From IMG/VR virus record IMGVR_UViG_3300045988_066710: 64,000 bases of DNA. The stretch is one strand, 5' to 3'. The translations under genes were made by a program, and so were the position numbers. Origin of the DNA: a virus. The notes beneath the pieces are model-generated. The model saw only the letters and a program-made list of their open reading frames with translations. It was not told the origin of the DNA and searched no databases. Shown piece after piece: positions 8,304-33,107 of this stretch; the stretch's first letter is position 1; each line of letters begins with the position of its first letter.

Positions 8304-8735
8304 TTATTTTATTTTTAAGGTAATTTTTTCCTGCTTATTCTTGGCTCCTGTAAGAAGAGAGATGAACTTCTCACAAGTAACTCTACTATTAATTACCTTA
8401 CCTATTACTTTATTTTCTCCGAGTAAAACACAGCCAGAAGAATCCTTGTCTGTATTACCACTATGAAATCTTATACCATCAAAACCTTTAACATTAAGTA
8501 CTATAGGTAATTGCTTTTTAAATCTAGGACTATAAGTTATATCTACATTATAATTACCAGTAGGTATAGCAGTTTCATGCTTAACTTTAATCTTAAGTAT
8601 TTCTTCTACTGACATAGTATCTTTAAGACCTCTATCTTTATCTTCTAATGTGTCACAGAAATATTCATTATCAACATAAAGTTTACCTATAGTATATGTA
8701 GATTTCTTAGCTATCCTTTTTATTAGTATCTCCAT
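8304..8735 (-). CDS. DUF5675-like protein; candidate cell-wall hydrolase of the lysis cassette
   Basis: The pattern TIGKLYVDNEYFCDTLED...TAIPTGNYNV...GIRFHSGNTDKDSSGCVLLG resembles the DUF5675 family as I recall it. The gene follows two membrane proteins. Confidence 0.4.
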   Translation of the reverse strand: MEILIKRIAKKSTYTIGKLYVDNEYFCDTLEDKDRGLKDTMSVEEILKIKVKHETAIPTGNYNVDITYSPRFKKQLPIVLNVKGFDGIRFHSGNTDKDSSGCVLLGENKVIGKVINSRVTCEKFISLLTGAKNKQEKITLKIK

Positions 8736-9054
8736 TTTCTGATAATTTATTAAGTTGTTTTTCTGTTAATCTAGACCTTTTATCACATATCTTAATTTGA
8801 CAAGCTAAAGGATATAAAGAGTCTACTGTAGCCTGCAATTTATGTATAGTAGTTCTATCATTTTCTCTTAACTCTATAATAAGATTTAATTGCTTTCTAG
8901 TATCTTCAACTATCTCTTTATATATGTCTAACTGTTTTTGTATATTATTTAATTCATTACCATCTACTTCTACATTATATTTCCTTCTAGCTAATATCCA
9001 AGTAACTATACTTGTAACAATAGCTATTCCCCCATTAATAAGTAAGTCTATCAT
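8707..9054 (-). CDS. single-pass membrane coiled-coil protein (holin or i-spanin-like)
   Basis: N-terminal transmembrane segment LINGGIAIVTSIVTWILA followed by a coiled-coil-like region. Overlaps both neighbours. Confidence 0.45.
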   Translation of the reverse strand: MIDLLINGGIAIVTSIVTWILARRKYNVEVDGNELNNIQKQLDIYKEIVEDTRKQLNLIIELRENDRTTIHKLQATVDSLYPLACQIKICDKRSRLTEKQLNKLSENGDTNKKDS

Positions 9055-9443
9055 TTCTTAAAATGCTTATATATAATAATTATGAACATTAATAAAGAGA
9101 ATAAACCTATATACATTAATATTTTCTGTACTACATTTAATTGATTTTTTACTTTAATTTCTGTTACTTTCTGTAATTTAATTATAGTATCAGTCTCATT
9201 AACTATTATAGTATCTTTCAAGTATTTATATTTATATCTGTAAGCTACTTTATTATTATATATAGTATCTCCTTTCTGTATAATATAAACACTATCCTTT
9301 AAATAAATAGAATCATACTTAACTTTATCTATATATTTAATTTCAGTTTTTATCTGAGGTATAGGAACTTCTACTATTTTCTCCTTTACTTTGCAGGAGC
9401 CTAATAGTAAAGTCATGAATAATAAAAATAAAATCTTTCTCAT
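9051..9443 (-). CDS. lipoprotein with C-terminal transmembrane helix (unimolecular-spanin-like architecture)
   Basis: Signal peptide with lipobox MTLLLGSC, plus a C-terminal transmembrane segment ILMYIGLFSLLMFIIIIY. Confidence 0.5.
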   Translation of the reverse strand: MRKILFLLFMTLLLGSCKVKEKIVEVPIPQIKTEIKYIDKVKYDSIYLKDSVYIIQKGDTIYNNKVAYRYKYKYLKDTIIVNETDTIIKLQKVTEIKVKNQLNVVQKILMYIGLFSLLMFIIIIYKHFKK

Positions 9444-23229: not shown

Positions 23230-23251
23230 ACTCTTAATATTTTTATATTAG

Positions 23252-23335
23252 TACTCCTAACAAGATTTGAACTTGCATAGCCTAAAGGCTGAGGGATTTT
23301 AAGTCCCTTGTGTCTACCAATTCCACCATAGGAGC
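23252..23335 (-). tRNA. tRNA-Leu(TAA): tRNA-Leu (anticodon UAA), type II
   Basis: Hand fold: acceptor GCTCCTA/TAGGAGT, anticodon stem AGGGA/TCCCT with loop CTTAAAA, long variable arm CAGCCTTTAGGCTATG, T arm GCAAG-TTCAAAT-CTTGT. Confidence 0.85.
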
Positions 23336-23353
23336 ATTGTTTTATTTAACTGC

Positions 23354-23363
23354 TGCAAAGATA
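23354..23363 (-). promoter_or_regulatory. Bacteroidota-type -7 promoter box
   Basis: Reverse complement is TATCTTTGCA. It lies 19 nt upstream of the tRNA-Leu 5' end. Confidence 0.6.
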
Positions 23364-23423
23364 ATACAAATATTTATATTATGCAAGGAAATTACATACT
23401 TTAACACTTAATTAACAGTCATT

Positions 23424-23447
23424 AAAAAAGGAGGTATTGACCTCCTT
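23424..23447 (-). terminator. intrinsic terminator
   Basis: Stem AAGGAGGT(23428-23435)/ACCTCCTT(23440-23447). The minus strand is followed by TTTTTT. Confidence 0.55.
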
Positions 23448-23497
23448 AACCATAGTGCATGAGCCATATTGCTCATAACACTTTAAACATCAATTAA

Positions 23498-23608
23498 TTA
23501 CGCAGGACACATAGGAGAAATACCATGTTTATAGAATGGTTCCATAGCATCTGCATAAGCTTTAAAATAAGCTTTAATCATGCTTTTTACAAATGTAATA
23601 ACTTTCAT
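23498..23608 (-). CDS. small ORF (36 aa)
   Basis: Hand translation gives MKVITFVKSMIKAYFKAYADAMEPFYKHGISPMCPA*. It lies between tRNA-Thr and a terminator. Confidence 0.3.
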   Translation of the reverse strand: MKVITFVKSMIKAYFKAYADAMEPFYKHGISPMCPA

Positions 23609-23635
23609 AATAATACAAATTTAAAGTTTATATTG

Positions 23636-23707
23636 AGCTTCTCATAGGACTCAAACCTATAACCTTCACCTTACAAGGGTGACAATCTATCATTGATATA
23701 GAGAAGC
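23636..23707 (-). tRNA. tRNA-Thr(TGT): tRNA-Thr (anticodon UGU), atypical D arm
   Basis: Acceptor GCTTCTC/GAGAAGC, anticodon arm TCACC-CTTGTAA-GGTGA, T arm ATAGG-TTTGAGT-CCTAT. The D stem has only about 3 bp and the D loop lacks GG. Confidence 0.6.
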
Positions 23708-23959
23708 TTATTTCTTTTCATATTTTTCTGACCATGCTTTAGTAATACCTACAGATGTAAATATAGCTGCTACTGCTGTAATATATTGTGCCATACCACT
23801 TAAATCTGTATGTATTGTATGTTCATTAAATACTTCTACTAATAATACTATTATAGGTACTATAAGTAATAATATACCTACAATAGTTACAGATACTAGA
23901 AAGAAATTCTTAGAACTTACTCCTGTATTATTCTGTATAAGTTTTAATAAATAATTCAT
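23708..23959 (-). CDS. two-TM small membrane protein embedded in the tRNA array (holin-like topology)
   Basis: The ORF-track 120-aa ORF is trimmed to the internal Met (MNYLLKLIQ...), because its first about 37 codons overlap tRNA-Lys and tRNA-Ile. Transmembrane segments are LVSVTIVGILLLIVPIIVLLV and AQYITAVAAIFTSVGI. Confidence 0.45.
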   Translation of the reverse strand: MNYLLKLIQNNTGVSSKNFFLVSVTIVGILLLIVPIIVLLVEVFNEHTIHTDLSGMAQYITAVAAIFTSVGITKAWSEKYEKK

Positions 23960-23961
23960 AG

Positions 23962-24034
23962 TCTCTCCTATGGGACTTGAACCCATGACCCCAAAATTAA
24001 AAGTTTCGTACTCTACCAACTGAGCTAAAGAGAG
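23962..24034 (-). tRNA. tRNA-Lys(TTT): tRNA-Lys (anticodon UUU)
   Basis: Acceptor CTCTCTT/AGGAGAG, D arm GCTC-AGTTGGTA-GAGT, anticodon loop CTTTTAA, T arm ATGGG-TTCAAGT-CCCAT. Confidence 0.85.
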
Positions 24035-24040
24035 AAATAG

Positions 24041-24114
24041 TAGGAGCAGAGGGACTTGAACCCCCGACAATTTGGATATAAGCCAAATGCTCTAACCGAC
24101 TGAACTATACTCCT
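24041..24114 (-). tRNA. tRNA-Ile(TAT): tRNA-Ile (anticodon UAU)
   Basis: Acceptor AGGAGTA/TGCTCCT, D arm GTTC-AGTCGGTTA-GAGC, anticodon arm TTTGG-CTTATAT-CCAAA, T loop TTCAAGT. Confidence 0.85.
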
Positions 24115-24122
24115 ATTTATAG

Positions 24123-24194
24123 CTGGGATAGAGGATTACGATACCTCAACCTTTTGATTAACAGTCAAATGCTCTGCCTTTGAGCTATATCCCA
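24123..24194 (-). tRNA. tRNA-Asn(GTT): tRNA-Asn (anticodon GUU), atypical T loop
   Basis: Acceptor TGGGATA/TATCCCA, D arm GCTC-AAAGGCA-GAGC, anticodon arm TTTGA-CTGTTAA-TCAAA. The T arm GAGGT-ATCGTAA-TCCTC has a T-T closing mismatch. Confidence 0.6.
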
Positions 24195-24271
24195 ATAATA
24201 GCACTCTACTTTATTAAGGGAAAGTAGAGTTGAAAACCTTAGTTTAATATATTAAATCTAAAAGTTAATAG

Positions 24272-24343
24272 TTGTGGGTGTTGGATTCAAACCAACGACC
24301 ACTTGGTTATGAGCCAAGTAAGCTATCACTGCTACAACCCACG
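24272..24343 (-). tRNA. tRNA-Met(CAT): tRNA with CAU anticodon (Met, initiator-like or Ile2; C1-A72 mismatch)
   Basis: Acceptor CGTGGGT/ACCCACA with the first pair being C·A. Anticodon arm CTTGG-CTCATAA-CCAAG, T arm GTTGG-TTTGAAT-CCAAC. Confidence 0.75.
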
Positions 24344-24476
24344 ATGTAAGGGAGATAACTCTAGCCTCCCTTGTTACTAAGGATTCTACGACATCCACTA
24401 GGACTAAACTTACATAGATAAACTAAAACCTAGGAGTTACGTTGTATTCATATATGCATCTACAATACTTTTCATG

Positions 24477-24549
24477 TGGAGACAGAGAGACTCGAACTCT
24501 AAACACTTCCTTGCAAAGGAAGTATGTTACCAATTACACCACTATCCCC
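24477..24549 (-). tRNA. tRNA-Ala(TGC): tRNA-Ala (anticodon UGC)
   Basis: Acceptor GGGGATA/TGTCTCC gives a G3:U70 pair, with discriminator A. Anticodon arm CTTCC-TTTGCAA-GGAAG, T loop TTCGAGT. The D stem is weak (about 3 bp). Confidence 0.65.
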
Positions 24550-24692
24550 AAATTAAGCAGCTAGTCTTCACAGATTTACTGCTTATAGTTAATTTATTAT
24601 GGTAGATTTTAACTAAACTATCTTATCTTTACAGATTTGATAGTTTTATAATTTTAAATTTAAAATATATAAAGGCTTCTCTAACAACTTTG

Positions 24693-24765
24693 TGACTCTG
24701 ATAGGATTCAAACCTATGACTCACAGCTTAGAAGGCTGTTACTCTATTCACTGAGTTACAGAGCC
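24693..24765 (-). tRNA. tRNA-Arg(TCT): tRNA-Arg (anticodon UCU)
   Basis: Acceptor GGCTCTG/CAGAGTC, D arm ACTC-AGTGAATA-GAGT, anticodon arm ACAGC-CTTCTAA-GCTGT, T arm ATAGG-TTTGAAT-CCTAT. Confidence 0.85.
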
Positions 24766-24772
24766 ATCATAG

Positions 24773-24843
24773 TTGGAATACCCAGATTCGAACTGAAAAT
24801 TAGAGAACCAAAATCTCTCGTGTTACCATTACACTATACTCCA
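24773..24843 (-). tRNA. tRNA-Gln(TTG): tRNA-Gln (anticodon UUG)
   Basis: Acceptor TGGAGTA/TATTCCA (U1-A72), D arm GTGT-AATGGTA-ACAC, anticodon arm AGAGA-TTTTGGT-TCTCT, T loop TTCGAAT. Confidence 0.8.
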
Positions 24844-31428: not shown

Positions 31429-31513
31429 TTGTTAGTCCTGTAAGGAGATAAATAACTCTAGTTTGGTTAGTAAATGCTAGCCTTTATTTATTCTCTCTTA
31501 CAGGACCCAACAA
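31429..31513 (+). repeat. long imperfect hairpin related to the 29564-29641 element
   Basis: GTCCTGTAAG(31435-31444) pairs with CTTACAGGAC(31497-31506). Flanking helices bring the total to about 26 bp. The core differs from element A by a compensated A-T to G-C change. Confidence 0.6.
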
Positions 31514-32008: not shown

Positions 32009-32428
32009 ATGTGTTGGATAGGTAGAAAAGATAATAAACAGGTAGCTAAAAGAGACTTTTATGTCTATAAAGTAGGCTTAGTACTTGATAACACCTTTAT
32101 TAGTTTATATCAGAAATATATCTATAGAATTAAAAGAAATAATCCAATAATTCCTTTAAAGCCTATAGAAGATAATTGTGGAATGATTAAAATAGAAGAT
32201 GGTTACCATTCTTATAAAGAAGTAGCTATAGAATTTTGTCAAAATCCTTATCTTAGAGATATATATTTAGGAGATGCTATCAAAGGTTTTGTAGATGACT
32301 TAAGACTATACTCTCATCTATATTTATGTACTTTTATAGTTCCTAAAGGTTCTGAATACTATATAAATAATAGAGGTGAAATTGTTTCTTCTAACATTAT
32401 TTACACAGGTAAGTGGGTAAAGTTATAA
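32009..32428 (+). CDS. member 1 of a 3-gene 'MC...VYK...GxHS...FI[IV]P[KR]xS' paralog family
   Basis: MCWIGRK..AKRDFYVYKV, EDGYHSYK and FIVPKGSEYYINNRGEIVSSNIIYTG are shared with 32652..33107 and 43527..43955. Confidence 0.6.
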   Translation: MCWIGRKDNKQVAKRDFYVYKVGLVLDNTFISLYQKYIYRIKRNNPIIPLKPIEDNCGMIKIEDGYHSYKEVAIEFCQNPYLRDIYLGDAIKGFVDDLRLYSHLYLCTFIVPKGSEYYINNRGEIVSSNIIYTGKWVKL

Positions 32429-32448
32429 AGATATAATAATTATTAAAC

Positions 32449-32549
32449 GAGAAGTTACCTACATAATCCGGAGTATGTAGGACAGGTGATAAGGCGAAAC
32501 ATGATTATTATCTAAGTAGCTGAAGTACGTTCAATTCGTATTACTTCTC
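32449..32549 (+). ncRNA. tRNA-like structured RNA (four-way junction with T-arm mimic), not a canonical tRNA
   Basis: A 7-bp closing stem GAGAAGT(32449-55)/ACTTCTC(32543-49). An 8-bp hairpin at 32458-32481. An irregular 40-nt arm at 32483-32522. A T-arm-like GTACG-TTCAATT-CGTAT at 32525-32541. A terminator lies 37 nt downstream. Confidence 0.5.
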
Positions 32550-32585
32550 CAAAATCTCTGAGAGGCTTTATGCCATATGTTTTAT

Positions 32586-32625
32586 AGGAGTGTATTAACT
32601 ATCTAGTTAGTATACTCCTTTTTAT
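32586..32625 (+). terminator. intrinsic terminator
   Basis: Stem AGGAGTGTA(32586-94)/TATACTCCT(32611-19) followed by TTTTTAT. Confidence 0.65.
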
Positions 32626-32651
32626 ATTTAAGTATTTTAAATATTAAGCTT

Positions 32652-33107
32652 ATGTGTTTTATTAGGACAAAAGAAAGTAAATTATTAATAGCAAAAAGAG
32701 ATATTACAGTTTATAAAGTAGGAATATATGCAGATGTACAAATGTTTACACCATACTTTATGACTGATTATTGTTATAGAAGAAAAGCACTTGCTAATCA
32801 AACTGTAACATTTAATAAAAACTCTATTAACATAGGTTTACATAGTGTATTATCTTTAGAAGGTTGTTATGCATCATTAATTGGCTGTATACGTTTTTTC
32901 TCTAATGGAAGTCGCATTCCTTTTATTATTGTAAATGTTTTATGTAATCATGTTTATATAGGAAAATTTATTATTCCAAGAGATAGTTTATATATGGTTA
33001 ATTCTCATAATGAAGTAGTATCTAATAGGCTTATTTATACAGGTGAATTTAAACACATTAATAAGAATGAAGATTTTAATATTAAAGAATTATGGAAAGA
33101 AAAATAG
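32652..33107 (+). CDS. member 2 of the 'MC...' paralog family
   Basis: Carries MCFIRTK..AKRDITVYKV, NIGLHSV and FIIPRDSLYMVNSHNEVVSNRLIYTG. Confidence 0.6.
   Translation: MCFIRTKESKLLIAKRDITVYKVGIYADVQMFTPYFMTDYCYRRKALANQTVTFNKNSINIGLHSVLSLEGCYASLIGCIRFFSNGSRIPFIIVNVLCNHVYIGKFIIPRDSLYMVNSHNEVVSNRLIYTGEFKHINKNEDFNIKELWKEK

Follow-up and report, generated by a model that had tools for sequence, protein, structure and literature searches.

The sequence analysed here (the window) is a stretch of 64,000 nucleotides (nt) from IMG/VR virus record IMGVR_UViG_3300045988_066710 and is part of a crAss-like phage of the order Crassvirales. The terminase shares 69% identity with that of the uncultured phage cr128_1 (Steigviridae) and about 66% with those of Bacteroides crAss-like phages. 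Up to about 28 kb, the minus strand carries the structural genes along with nine tRNA genes; the plus strand carries small early genes and then the replication module. About 3 kb inside the plus-strand early region, a gap of 223 nt separates two plus-strand genes, 32009–32428 and 32652–33107. An earlier note on this DNA, made from the sequence alone, had described the gap as non-coding, the two genes as paralogous, and the sequence between them as a tRNA-like structured RNA with a terminator. No open reading frame (ORF) of at least 25 amino acids was found in 32429–32651 on either strand, and the flanking genes, which we call paralogues 1 and 2 of the MCW family, both match phrog_13450 and share 33% identity. 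On its plus strand, the gap encodes at 32449–32549 an RNA that folds into a cloverleaf-like four-way junction, with an acceptor stem and a T arm in the style of tRNA and with neither a D loop nor an anticodon loop.

Folded without constraints, 32449–32549 gave a minimum free energy (MFE) structure of -25.1 kcal/mol (z = -2.6; 3 of 200 shuffled sequences were as good). This structure reproduced the four-way junction that had been drawn by hand in the earlier note, with every helix where it had been placed, and the junction was retained when the entire 223-nt gap was folded. Taken alone, the z-score is modest support for a structure. That the structure goes beyond chance follows from covariation in relatives, described below.

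The RNA can be read in tRNA numbering from one end to the other: a 7-bp stem, U8, A9, a hairpin in the place of the D arm, a third arm, a 5-nt linker, a T arm and C73. The acceptor-like stem is formed by perfect pairing of GAGAAGU (32449–32455) with ACUUCUC (32543–32549). It is followed by a U8-A9-like linker (32456–32457), in which U is found in 48 of 51 distinct sequences of the family and A is invariant. Hairpin 1 (32458–32481), in the place of the D arm, has an 8-bp stem, CCTACATA/TATGTAGG, and an 8-nt loop, ATCCGGAG (RNA AUCCGGAG), with the self-complementary hexamer UCCGGA at 32467–32472. Where a tRNA has its anticodon arm, the MFE fold has arm 3 (32484–32513), a 9-bp stem (32484–92/32505–13) with a 12-nt loop. 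The linker AAGUAGCUGA (32514–32523) takes the place of the variable loop; its AAGUAG and final RAA are conserved, and the YYR between them is variable and unpaired. What had been noted as a T-arm mimic is a genuine T arm, (A)GUACG-UUCAAUU-CGUAU(U), at 32524–32542 (core GTACG-TTCAATT-CGTAT at 32525–41). The optional pair of A32524 with U32542 (T32542 in the DNA) would be the sixth of the T stem and would bring the stack of acceptor and T stems to 13 bp. A discriminator-like C and AAAA follow at 32550–32554, the end of a cassette of insertion or deletion: a relative, L171, lacks exactly 32449–32554. The nucleotide after the acceptor stem is C (C73) in four of the five paralogue types of the family, types A–D; the window RNA is of type A, in its minimal form of 101 nt. 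CCA is encoded neither by the RNA nor by any of the nine tRNA genes of the phage.

Relatives of this RNA were sampled within one clade of uncultured phages. Copies were located by exact-pattern scans of IMG/VR for the T arm and for the junction motif, in contigs of about 50–225 kb. Scanning of metagenome contigs yielded further copies in human and pig gut assemblies, and more came from contigs reached via homologues of the upstream protein. A covariance model (R1) was built from 26 sequences and applied to the fetched loci, where it found about 100 copies, 51 of them distinct, all in uncultured crAss-like phage contigs from gut metagenomes. It found a single copy in the window (97.1 bits, E ~2e-20). 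Many IMG/VR and gut-metagenome contigs carry identical or near-identical copies of the window RNA.

Elsewhere, the searches were negative. A blastn search with the gap found no homologue in 50,697 GenBank phage records. In the human-faecal phage record MT835539 (L001), the flanks alone matched and a family member was not found, and in the early region of cr128_1, the closest relative in GenBank, no member of the family was found. One 20-bit hit of the model in cr128_1 was judged false, as it lies inside an unannotated ORF (MAYLAVDKDGTEM...CDKCVFNRVTCK...) at 9205–9360 on the plus strand of this record (L296, NC_055885.1), in a stretch without annotated genes. A pattern scan of bacterial genomes, one per species, showed the family signature in none among the 120 matches listed. 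ARAGORN and Rfam 15 (at gathering thresholds and at E ≤ 10) were silent at the RNA, though nine ordinary tRNAs were called at 23251–24843, and six relatives gave no match at the RNA in Rfam at E ≤ 0.1. In the literature searched, we found no description of a tRNA-like RNA from crAss-like phages.

Covariation among relatives, which had been proposed as a check on the hand-drawn structure, was found in the acceptor stem and in hairpin 1, and the T arm proved invariant. Across the 51 distinct sequences, 94.3% of the cells were in standard pairs and seven pairs had changed on both sides. The covariation score was reached by 0 of 500 shuffles. In controls in which the partners were slid by one to three columns, 33–55% of the cells were paired, and a hand-checked alignment gave the same covariation picture. 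In the acceptor-like stem, five of eight columns had changed on both sides. At least five acceptor types were found, all of them paired: GAGAAGU/ACUUCUC, GGGGGAU/GUCCCCC, GGGAGAC/GUCUCCC, GGGAGCU/GGCUCUC and GGGAGAU/UUCUCCC. In hairpin 1, 99.8% of the cells were paired and two pairs had double changes, with exchanges of C-G to U-A (for example at 32462/32477) and of A-U to G-C. In the T arm, G53-C61 and UUNRAUU were found in 51 of 51 sequences, position 56 being U or A in type B. About 70 cells held G.U pairs, which would be A.C on the opposite strand; the folded strand is therefore the plus strand. We conclude that this RNA family is real, conserved and previously uncatalogued in Rfam 15, the GenBank phage records and the literature searched.

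The length of the acceptor/T stack is held at 13 bp by two routes. The acceptor stem is separated from the T stem by one additional nucleotide, whose partner is A48 in types A and E (7+6) and U8 in types B, C and D (8+5). A stack of 13 bp is the length found in bacterial tRNA-Sec, the usual length being 12 bp. A further regularity was seen between the junction motif and position 56 of the T loop. In each of 49 sequences, CAGG (types A, C, D and E) is accompanied by C56, and CAGA(U) (type B) by U56 or A56. Such an association could reflect a tertiary pair like G19-C56 of tRNA; it amounts to one division of the paralogue types.

In hairpin 1, the 8-nt loop consists nearly always of a purine, a self-complementary hexamer and a second purine. 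The hexamers UCCGGA, UUGCAA, UCGCGA, UCAUGA and CUGCAG were found in the family, together with UCGUGA, which self-pairs via G.U only, and two that are not palindromic, CCGCGA and UUGAAA (the latter in a shortened copy of 96 nt). Six of the eight distinct hexamers are thus self-complementary, against about 5% of comparable hairpin loops in the window, and the background ones are nearly all A/T-only. Computed energies of a loop-loop self-duplex ranged from -2.8 to -10.3 kcal/mol, with UCCGGA of the window at -10.3. Tandem paralogues of one phage usually differ in their hexamers. At the level of RNA, the simplest reading suggested by these loops is a kissing-loop dimer. The pairing would be between two molecules because the loop is too short for internal pairing.

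We propose that the locus encodes a small, stable non-coding RNA of tRNA shape, which is accessory to the early region in this clade of crAss-like phages, is excised and mimics the top half of a tRNA. To this reading, taken as a whole, we give about an even chance. The RNA would be transcribed together with the upstream genes or, in larger relatives, with the tRNA array. It would then be excised by host tRNA-maturation enzymes, with RNase P acting at the 5′ end and, at the 3′ end, RNase Z or exonucleases followed by the CCA-adding enzyme. The host tRNA pathway would be the natural route of maturation because the RNA would lie inside a longer transcript or a tRNA array and because the phage tRNA genes also lack CCA. 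A precedent is the tRNA-like module of one YrlA RNA, described below. The tRNA fold would make the RNA resistant to nucleases. The working part would be the conserved core of 13-bp acceptor/T stack, T loop and junction, which as a mimic of the tRNA top half may occupy a host tRNA-binding protein or a tRNA-directed defence. We place the function in the core because conservation is highest there and because no other form is as common as the one with a minimal third arm. Two copies would be joined by loop-to-loop pairing through the self-complementary loop of hairpin 1. The early-gene setting, the diversity of paralogues and the presence/absence polymorphism would be as expected for an accessory factor of host interaction.

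Several points weigh against this proposal. The relatives cover little diversity, all being from one phage clade, and much of the covariation falls between the five paralogue types, so that it reflects a modest count of independent events. An 8-bp hairpin exceeds the length that a normal elbow of D loop and T loop can accommodate, so that mimicry of the L shape is putative. Transcription, processing, self-association and binding of the RNA are predictions from its sequence. Frequent loss (L171, L169 and L166) indicates that the RNA is dispensable. The palindromic loop could have arisen at the DNA level by quasi-palindrome correction; this correction should remove a mismatch such as the purine-purine mismatch flanking the hexamer, which is mostly retained. 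No fold or family was recognised in the flanking MCW proteins and no candidate partner was identified. The scanned ORFs of the window yielded no tRNA-related enzyme (RNA ligase, CCA enzyme or Ro60), just a normal replication module.

Among viruses of the human gut, crAss-like phages rank with the commonest, and the majority of their early genes lack an explanation. The RNA family, which unites a tRNA top half with a covarying self-complementary loop and a hypervariable arm, gives a handle on the use of host tRNA processing by these phages, on self-association of small phage RNAs (as in ROOL and GOLLD) and on a possible interaction with host defence by way of RNA. The natural occurrence of RNA-plus and RNA-minus phages at the same locus makes its function directly testable.

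The earlier note had credited the RNA with its own terminator. The terminator is real, and a terminator scan placed it at 32586–32625 on the plus strand, with a 15-pair stem at 32586–32619 followed by TTTTT. Its assignment to the RNA did not hold. Terminators without the RNA were found in L171, L169 and L166, and the RNA without the terminator in L175. Since relatives keep one without the other at the same locus, the terminator, judged from these comparisons, belongs to the operon. The same scan gave a terminator-like site at 31465–31482 on the plus strand, the likely upstream limit of the transcription unit, and no promoter-like site was found in the window directly upstream of the RNA on that strand. 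These two observations suggest that the RNA is co-transcribed with the three preceding genes.

The RNA is separated from the terminator by a trailer (32555–32585, plus strand) with a small hairpin, UCUC-UGA-GAGG (32555–65), and a conserved NCCA (AUGCCA, 32570–75). The trailer is retained in relatives without the RNA. Its CCA, found as AUGCCA, AGCCA or AACCA, is conserved despite changing surroundings. A mini-ORF of five amino acids in the trailer (AUGCCA...) was considered and dropped, as L005 and L015 lose the AUG and keep the CCA.

The position of the RNA varies among relatives. Many larger contigs have two tandem copies, type B then type A, placed either after a third MCW paralogue or after a tRNA-Leu that ends a long same-strand tRNA array. 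In these large relatives with an array, a distance of about 250 nt separates the RNAs from the preceding tRNA-Leu of that strand. In types C and E, the RNA ends about 25 nt ahead of a start codon, with no terminator between.

This setting, between a stop codon and the operon terminator in the window and always just upstream of some gene, closely so in types C and E, as well as the lack of a detected promoter of its own, could be explained by a cis-acting mRNA element. The RNA might be a tRNA-like punctuation mark or stabiliser in the 3′ untranslated region, with RNase P cleavage or the fold itself setting the 3′ end or the decay of the mRNA, or it might be a leader for the downstream gene. Its independence from the terminator is unlike that of a riboswitch and its expression platform, and alternative pairing with the terminator is not evident. 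The same RNA is found after different genes and also after a tRNA, and a simple stabiliser would hardly account for tandem copies whose acceptors differ and whose T loop is invariant. We regard a cis element as possible, if unlikely. Its specific form as a riboswitch or leader with terminator was rejected, given the separation of RNA and terminator in L171 and L175 and the types C and E without a terminator.

For the third arm, length varied with the copy. In type A, the region from hairpin 1 to the T arm measures 38, 43–44, 78–79, 99–103, 112 or 128 nt, sometimes in contexts that are otherwise near-identical, and only its base is conserved, GAUAAG on the 5′ side and AUC(U/A)AAGUAG on the 3′ side. 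Such unrelated inserts (38–128 nt) in near-identical contexts would fit a natural tRNA scaffold, in which the core serves processing and stability and the variable third arm is the working part, for example a fast-changing antisense or protein-binding module. In bacteria, tRNAs whose anticodon arm has been exchanged for another RNA form stable and correctly processed chimeras (tRNA-scaffold method; PMC3401473). The engineered scaffold of Ponchon and Dardel (cited in PMC3401473) resembles the phage RNA in having its anticodon arm replaced by a structured RNA, the rest providing processing and stability. It differs in being man-made, whereas the phage RNA also has its D arm replaced and in its commonest form is almost without an insert. 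The window copy is of this commonest variant, with a minimal arm of 30 nt. Conservation is strongest in the core, not in the arm. The complement of the arm-3 loop is absent from the window, a search for antisense targets having matched the loop itself alone. The scaffold explanation is doubtful on this evidence.

In the long arms of types A and C (L058, L024, L110, L002/L012 and L005), the junction motif AGGUGAA is repeated and a second small hairpin follows. The centre of this second hairpin is self-complementary and variable: GAAAGCUUUC, AAAAGCUUUU, GAAAAUUUUC, GAAUUC or AAAUUU. With two self-pairing loops per long-arm molecule, assemblies larger than dimers could form.

The proposal of a top-half mimic can be extended from here. 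The family might be a modular, fast-evolving one whose co-evolving palindromic loops, at the elbow and again in the long arms, join the molecules into dimers or bigger assemblies made of RNA alone. These would display tRNA top halves, with a 13-bp stack as in tRNA-Sec, and capture a tRNA-binding enzyme of the host or an anti-phage system directed at tRNA. We consider this extended form speculative and rather improbable. If true, such a self-assembling display of top halves would amount to a counter-defence or host-takeover factor made of RNA, of a new type, in the phages that are most abundant in the human gut.

Close relatives differ at this locus in the RNA itself. In L171, the RNA is precisely missing and both trailer and terminator are retained; in L175, the RNA is retained and these two are missing. 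Only the first 10 nt of the RNA are kept in L169 and only its 3′ half in L166 and L167, truncated remnants being found in L166, L169 and L148, and L172 has a version of 157 nt. Close relatives thus have the RNA exactly missing, cut short or changed in size at one and the same locus, and as far as these sequences indicate it is a dispensable accessory cassette with fast turnover.

A discrete cassette of 106 bp, present or absent, raises the possibility of an element acting at the DNA level: a protein-binding palindrome, a recombination site or a small mobile insertion, with the stems as inverted repeats. As DNA, hairpin 1 is a palindrome of 24 bp, close to perfect, with hexamers that resemble restriction sites at its centre, and the acceptor strands would be terminal inverted repeats of 7–8 bp. 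We consider such an element very unlikely. The many G.U pairs point to a strand-specific structure, and the inverted repeats differ between types with their pairing kept, which fits selection for pairing and not for a protein's recognition sequence. In its T arm, the element agrees with a tertiary motif of RNA. Comparison of filled with empty sites shows no target-site duplication, and no copies were seen in bacterial genomes among the 120 pattern matches listed.

A decaying or disrupted tRNA gene without present function, for which the tRNA-like acceptor stem and T arm and the truncated remnants might speak, is hardly credible, since a non-tRNA hairpin has been maintained through compensatory changes, the same odd architecture recurs in five types, even at E ≤ 10 there is no hit of the tRNA model, and intact copies are widespread (the 90% cluster of the neighbouring gene has 530 member sequences).

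The excised top-half mimic may be compared with known RNA families. With tRNA (RF00005), the window RNA shares the 7-bp acceptor stem, the U8-A9 linker, the 5-bp T stem with G53-C61, the T loop UUCRAUU and a four-way junction with tRNA-like linker lengths, and members of the family are sometimes located in a tRNA array. It differs in having an 8-bp hairpin with a variable, self-complementary 8-nt loop instead of a 3–4-bp D stem with G18 G19, and a 9-bp stem with a 12-nt loop instead of an anticodon arm of 5 bp and 7 nt; the stack is 13 bp in the family against 12. The earlier note, unable to draw an anticodon loop, had held that this is not a normal tRNA, and tRNA identity was indeed rejected: the D arm, the anticodon arm and a match to ARAGORN or RF00005 all fail.

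In Mycobacterium smegmatis, YrlA RNA has a tRNA-like module with a 7-bp acceptor stem, which RNase P cleaves in vitro and which is both cut and extended by CCA in vivo (PMC4201824). The 5′ and 3′ ends of YrlA form the Ro60-binding stem with a GNCGAAN0-1G motif, and its gene lies within 4 kb of rsr (PMC4201824). The phage RNA is likewise a non-coding RNA with a tRNA-like T arm and an acceptor-like stem, but its ends close the acceptor stem and not a Ro-binding stem. The sequence GGCGAAAC falls outside the GNCGAAN0-1G motif, and its variants in relatives are GGUGAAAC, GGCAAAAA and GAUGAAAA. The idea of a Y RNA or YrlA-like RNA, raised in the earlier note, was therefore given up: no Rfam match was found, the ends differ in topology, the motif is not conserved, and the window has no unassigned ORF big enough for Ro60 (TROVE).

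Bacteriophage T4 encodes RNAC and RNAD in its tRNA gene region, and they are processed with the tRNAs. They are small, stable phage RNAs whose function is still unknown (PMC9697503). The crAss-like RNA, compared with them by description only, is also a small phage RNA, and it lies in an early-gene region, whereas RNAC and RNAD are expressed late in T4. Transfer-messenger RNA (tmRNA) also combines an acceptor stem and a T arm with a non-tRNA insertion between them. The crAss-like RNA is about 100 nt long against about 330 nt and is without a tag frame, pseudoknots and G3.U70 (3:70 is G-C). ARAGORN was silent at the RNA though it called tmRNAs elsewhere in L023 and L025, and tmRNA identity was rejected.

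The ROOL, GOLLD and manA motif RNAs assemble through kissing loops that evolution has conserved, and the genes for ROOL and GOLLD often neighbour tRNA islands (PMC12286853; bioRxiv 10.64898/2026.07.01.735769). The crAss-like RNA is also phage-encoded and sometimes has a tRNA neighbourhood, and its palindromic loop alone points to self-association. These RNAs are separate Rfam families, mostly far larger, and their models gave no match to it. The dimerisation initiation site of human immunodeficiency virus type 1 (HIV-1) has a 6-nt self-complementary loop sequence that is flanked by unpaired purines and varies yet stays palindromic. This site, with a loop of 9 nt, is in the viral genomic RNA and serves genome dimerisation. 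In the crAss-like RNA, by contrast, the loop has 8 nt and is at the elbow of a tRNA-like fold. In mode of action, the tRNA-like module of YrlA, T4 RNAC and RNAD, and ROOL, GOLLD and manA may by analogy be the closest. A hammerhead, signal recognition particle RNA, a box C/D k-turn, an 11-nt receptor and a mimic of a CRISPR repeat, each considered by eye, were dropped because key conserved nucleotides did not fit or Rfam was silent.

For the flanking genes, homology gave little. Paralogue 1 (32009–32428) has 515 homologues, a Pfam domain in none of them, and those listed are all from metagenomic or phage contigs. An MCW family member lies upstream of the RNA in the window and in L002, L006, L010, L022, L025 and L027, and up to three consecutive paralogues stand immediately upstream of it (L025 1818–3562). 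The N-terminus of these proteins is always Met-Cys(-Trp), and a GYHSY motif is invariant. An AlphaFold model is all-beta (predicted local distance difference test score, pLDDT, 87). It had no fold match in the PDB, its matches being solely uncharacterised viral proteins. Against PDB sequences, the sole hints were a Dot/Icm effector and an ADP-ribosyltransferase toxin (E 0.2–0.3). With neither a Pfam family nor a PDB fold match, the MCW proteins were dropped as a clue to the function of the RNA. All ORFs of at least 400 amino acids in the window were assigned: capsid, portal, terminase, a 931-amino-acid protein with an endolysin-like domain, helicase and NrdD.

The nine tRNA genes on the minus strand (23251–24843; Leu, Thr, Lys, Ile, Asn, Met, Ala, Arg and Gln, called by ARAGORN and Rfam) have spacers of 250–300 nt between some of them (23336–23634 and 23708–23960). 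The acceptor stem of the RNA (GAGAAG/CUUCUC) is an inverted form of that of the phage tRNA-Thr (GCUUCUC/GAGAAGC; 23635–23707). This resemblance is probably a coincidence, as the other types of the RNA do not have it. Among large relatives, the arrays of L013 and L018 have at least 10 tRNAs and include odd calls: a two-base 'ta' anticodon, a tRNA-Tyr(ata) and a tRNA-Trp of 91 nt. Full tmRNAs with tag peptides ending in YAIAA were found in L023 (7201–7533, minus strand) and L025 (7722–8055, plus strand). About 500 nt downstream of the tmRNA gene in L025, an ORF at 8565–9329 (plus strand) has motifs like those of LAGLIDADG homing endonucleases (LGFIFADGY...FDGDGC).

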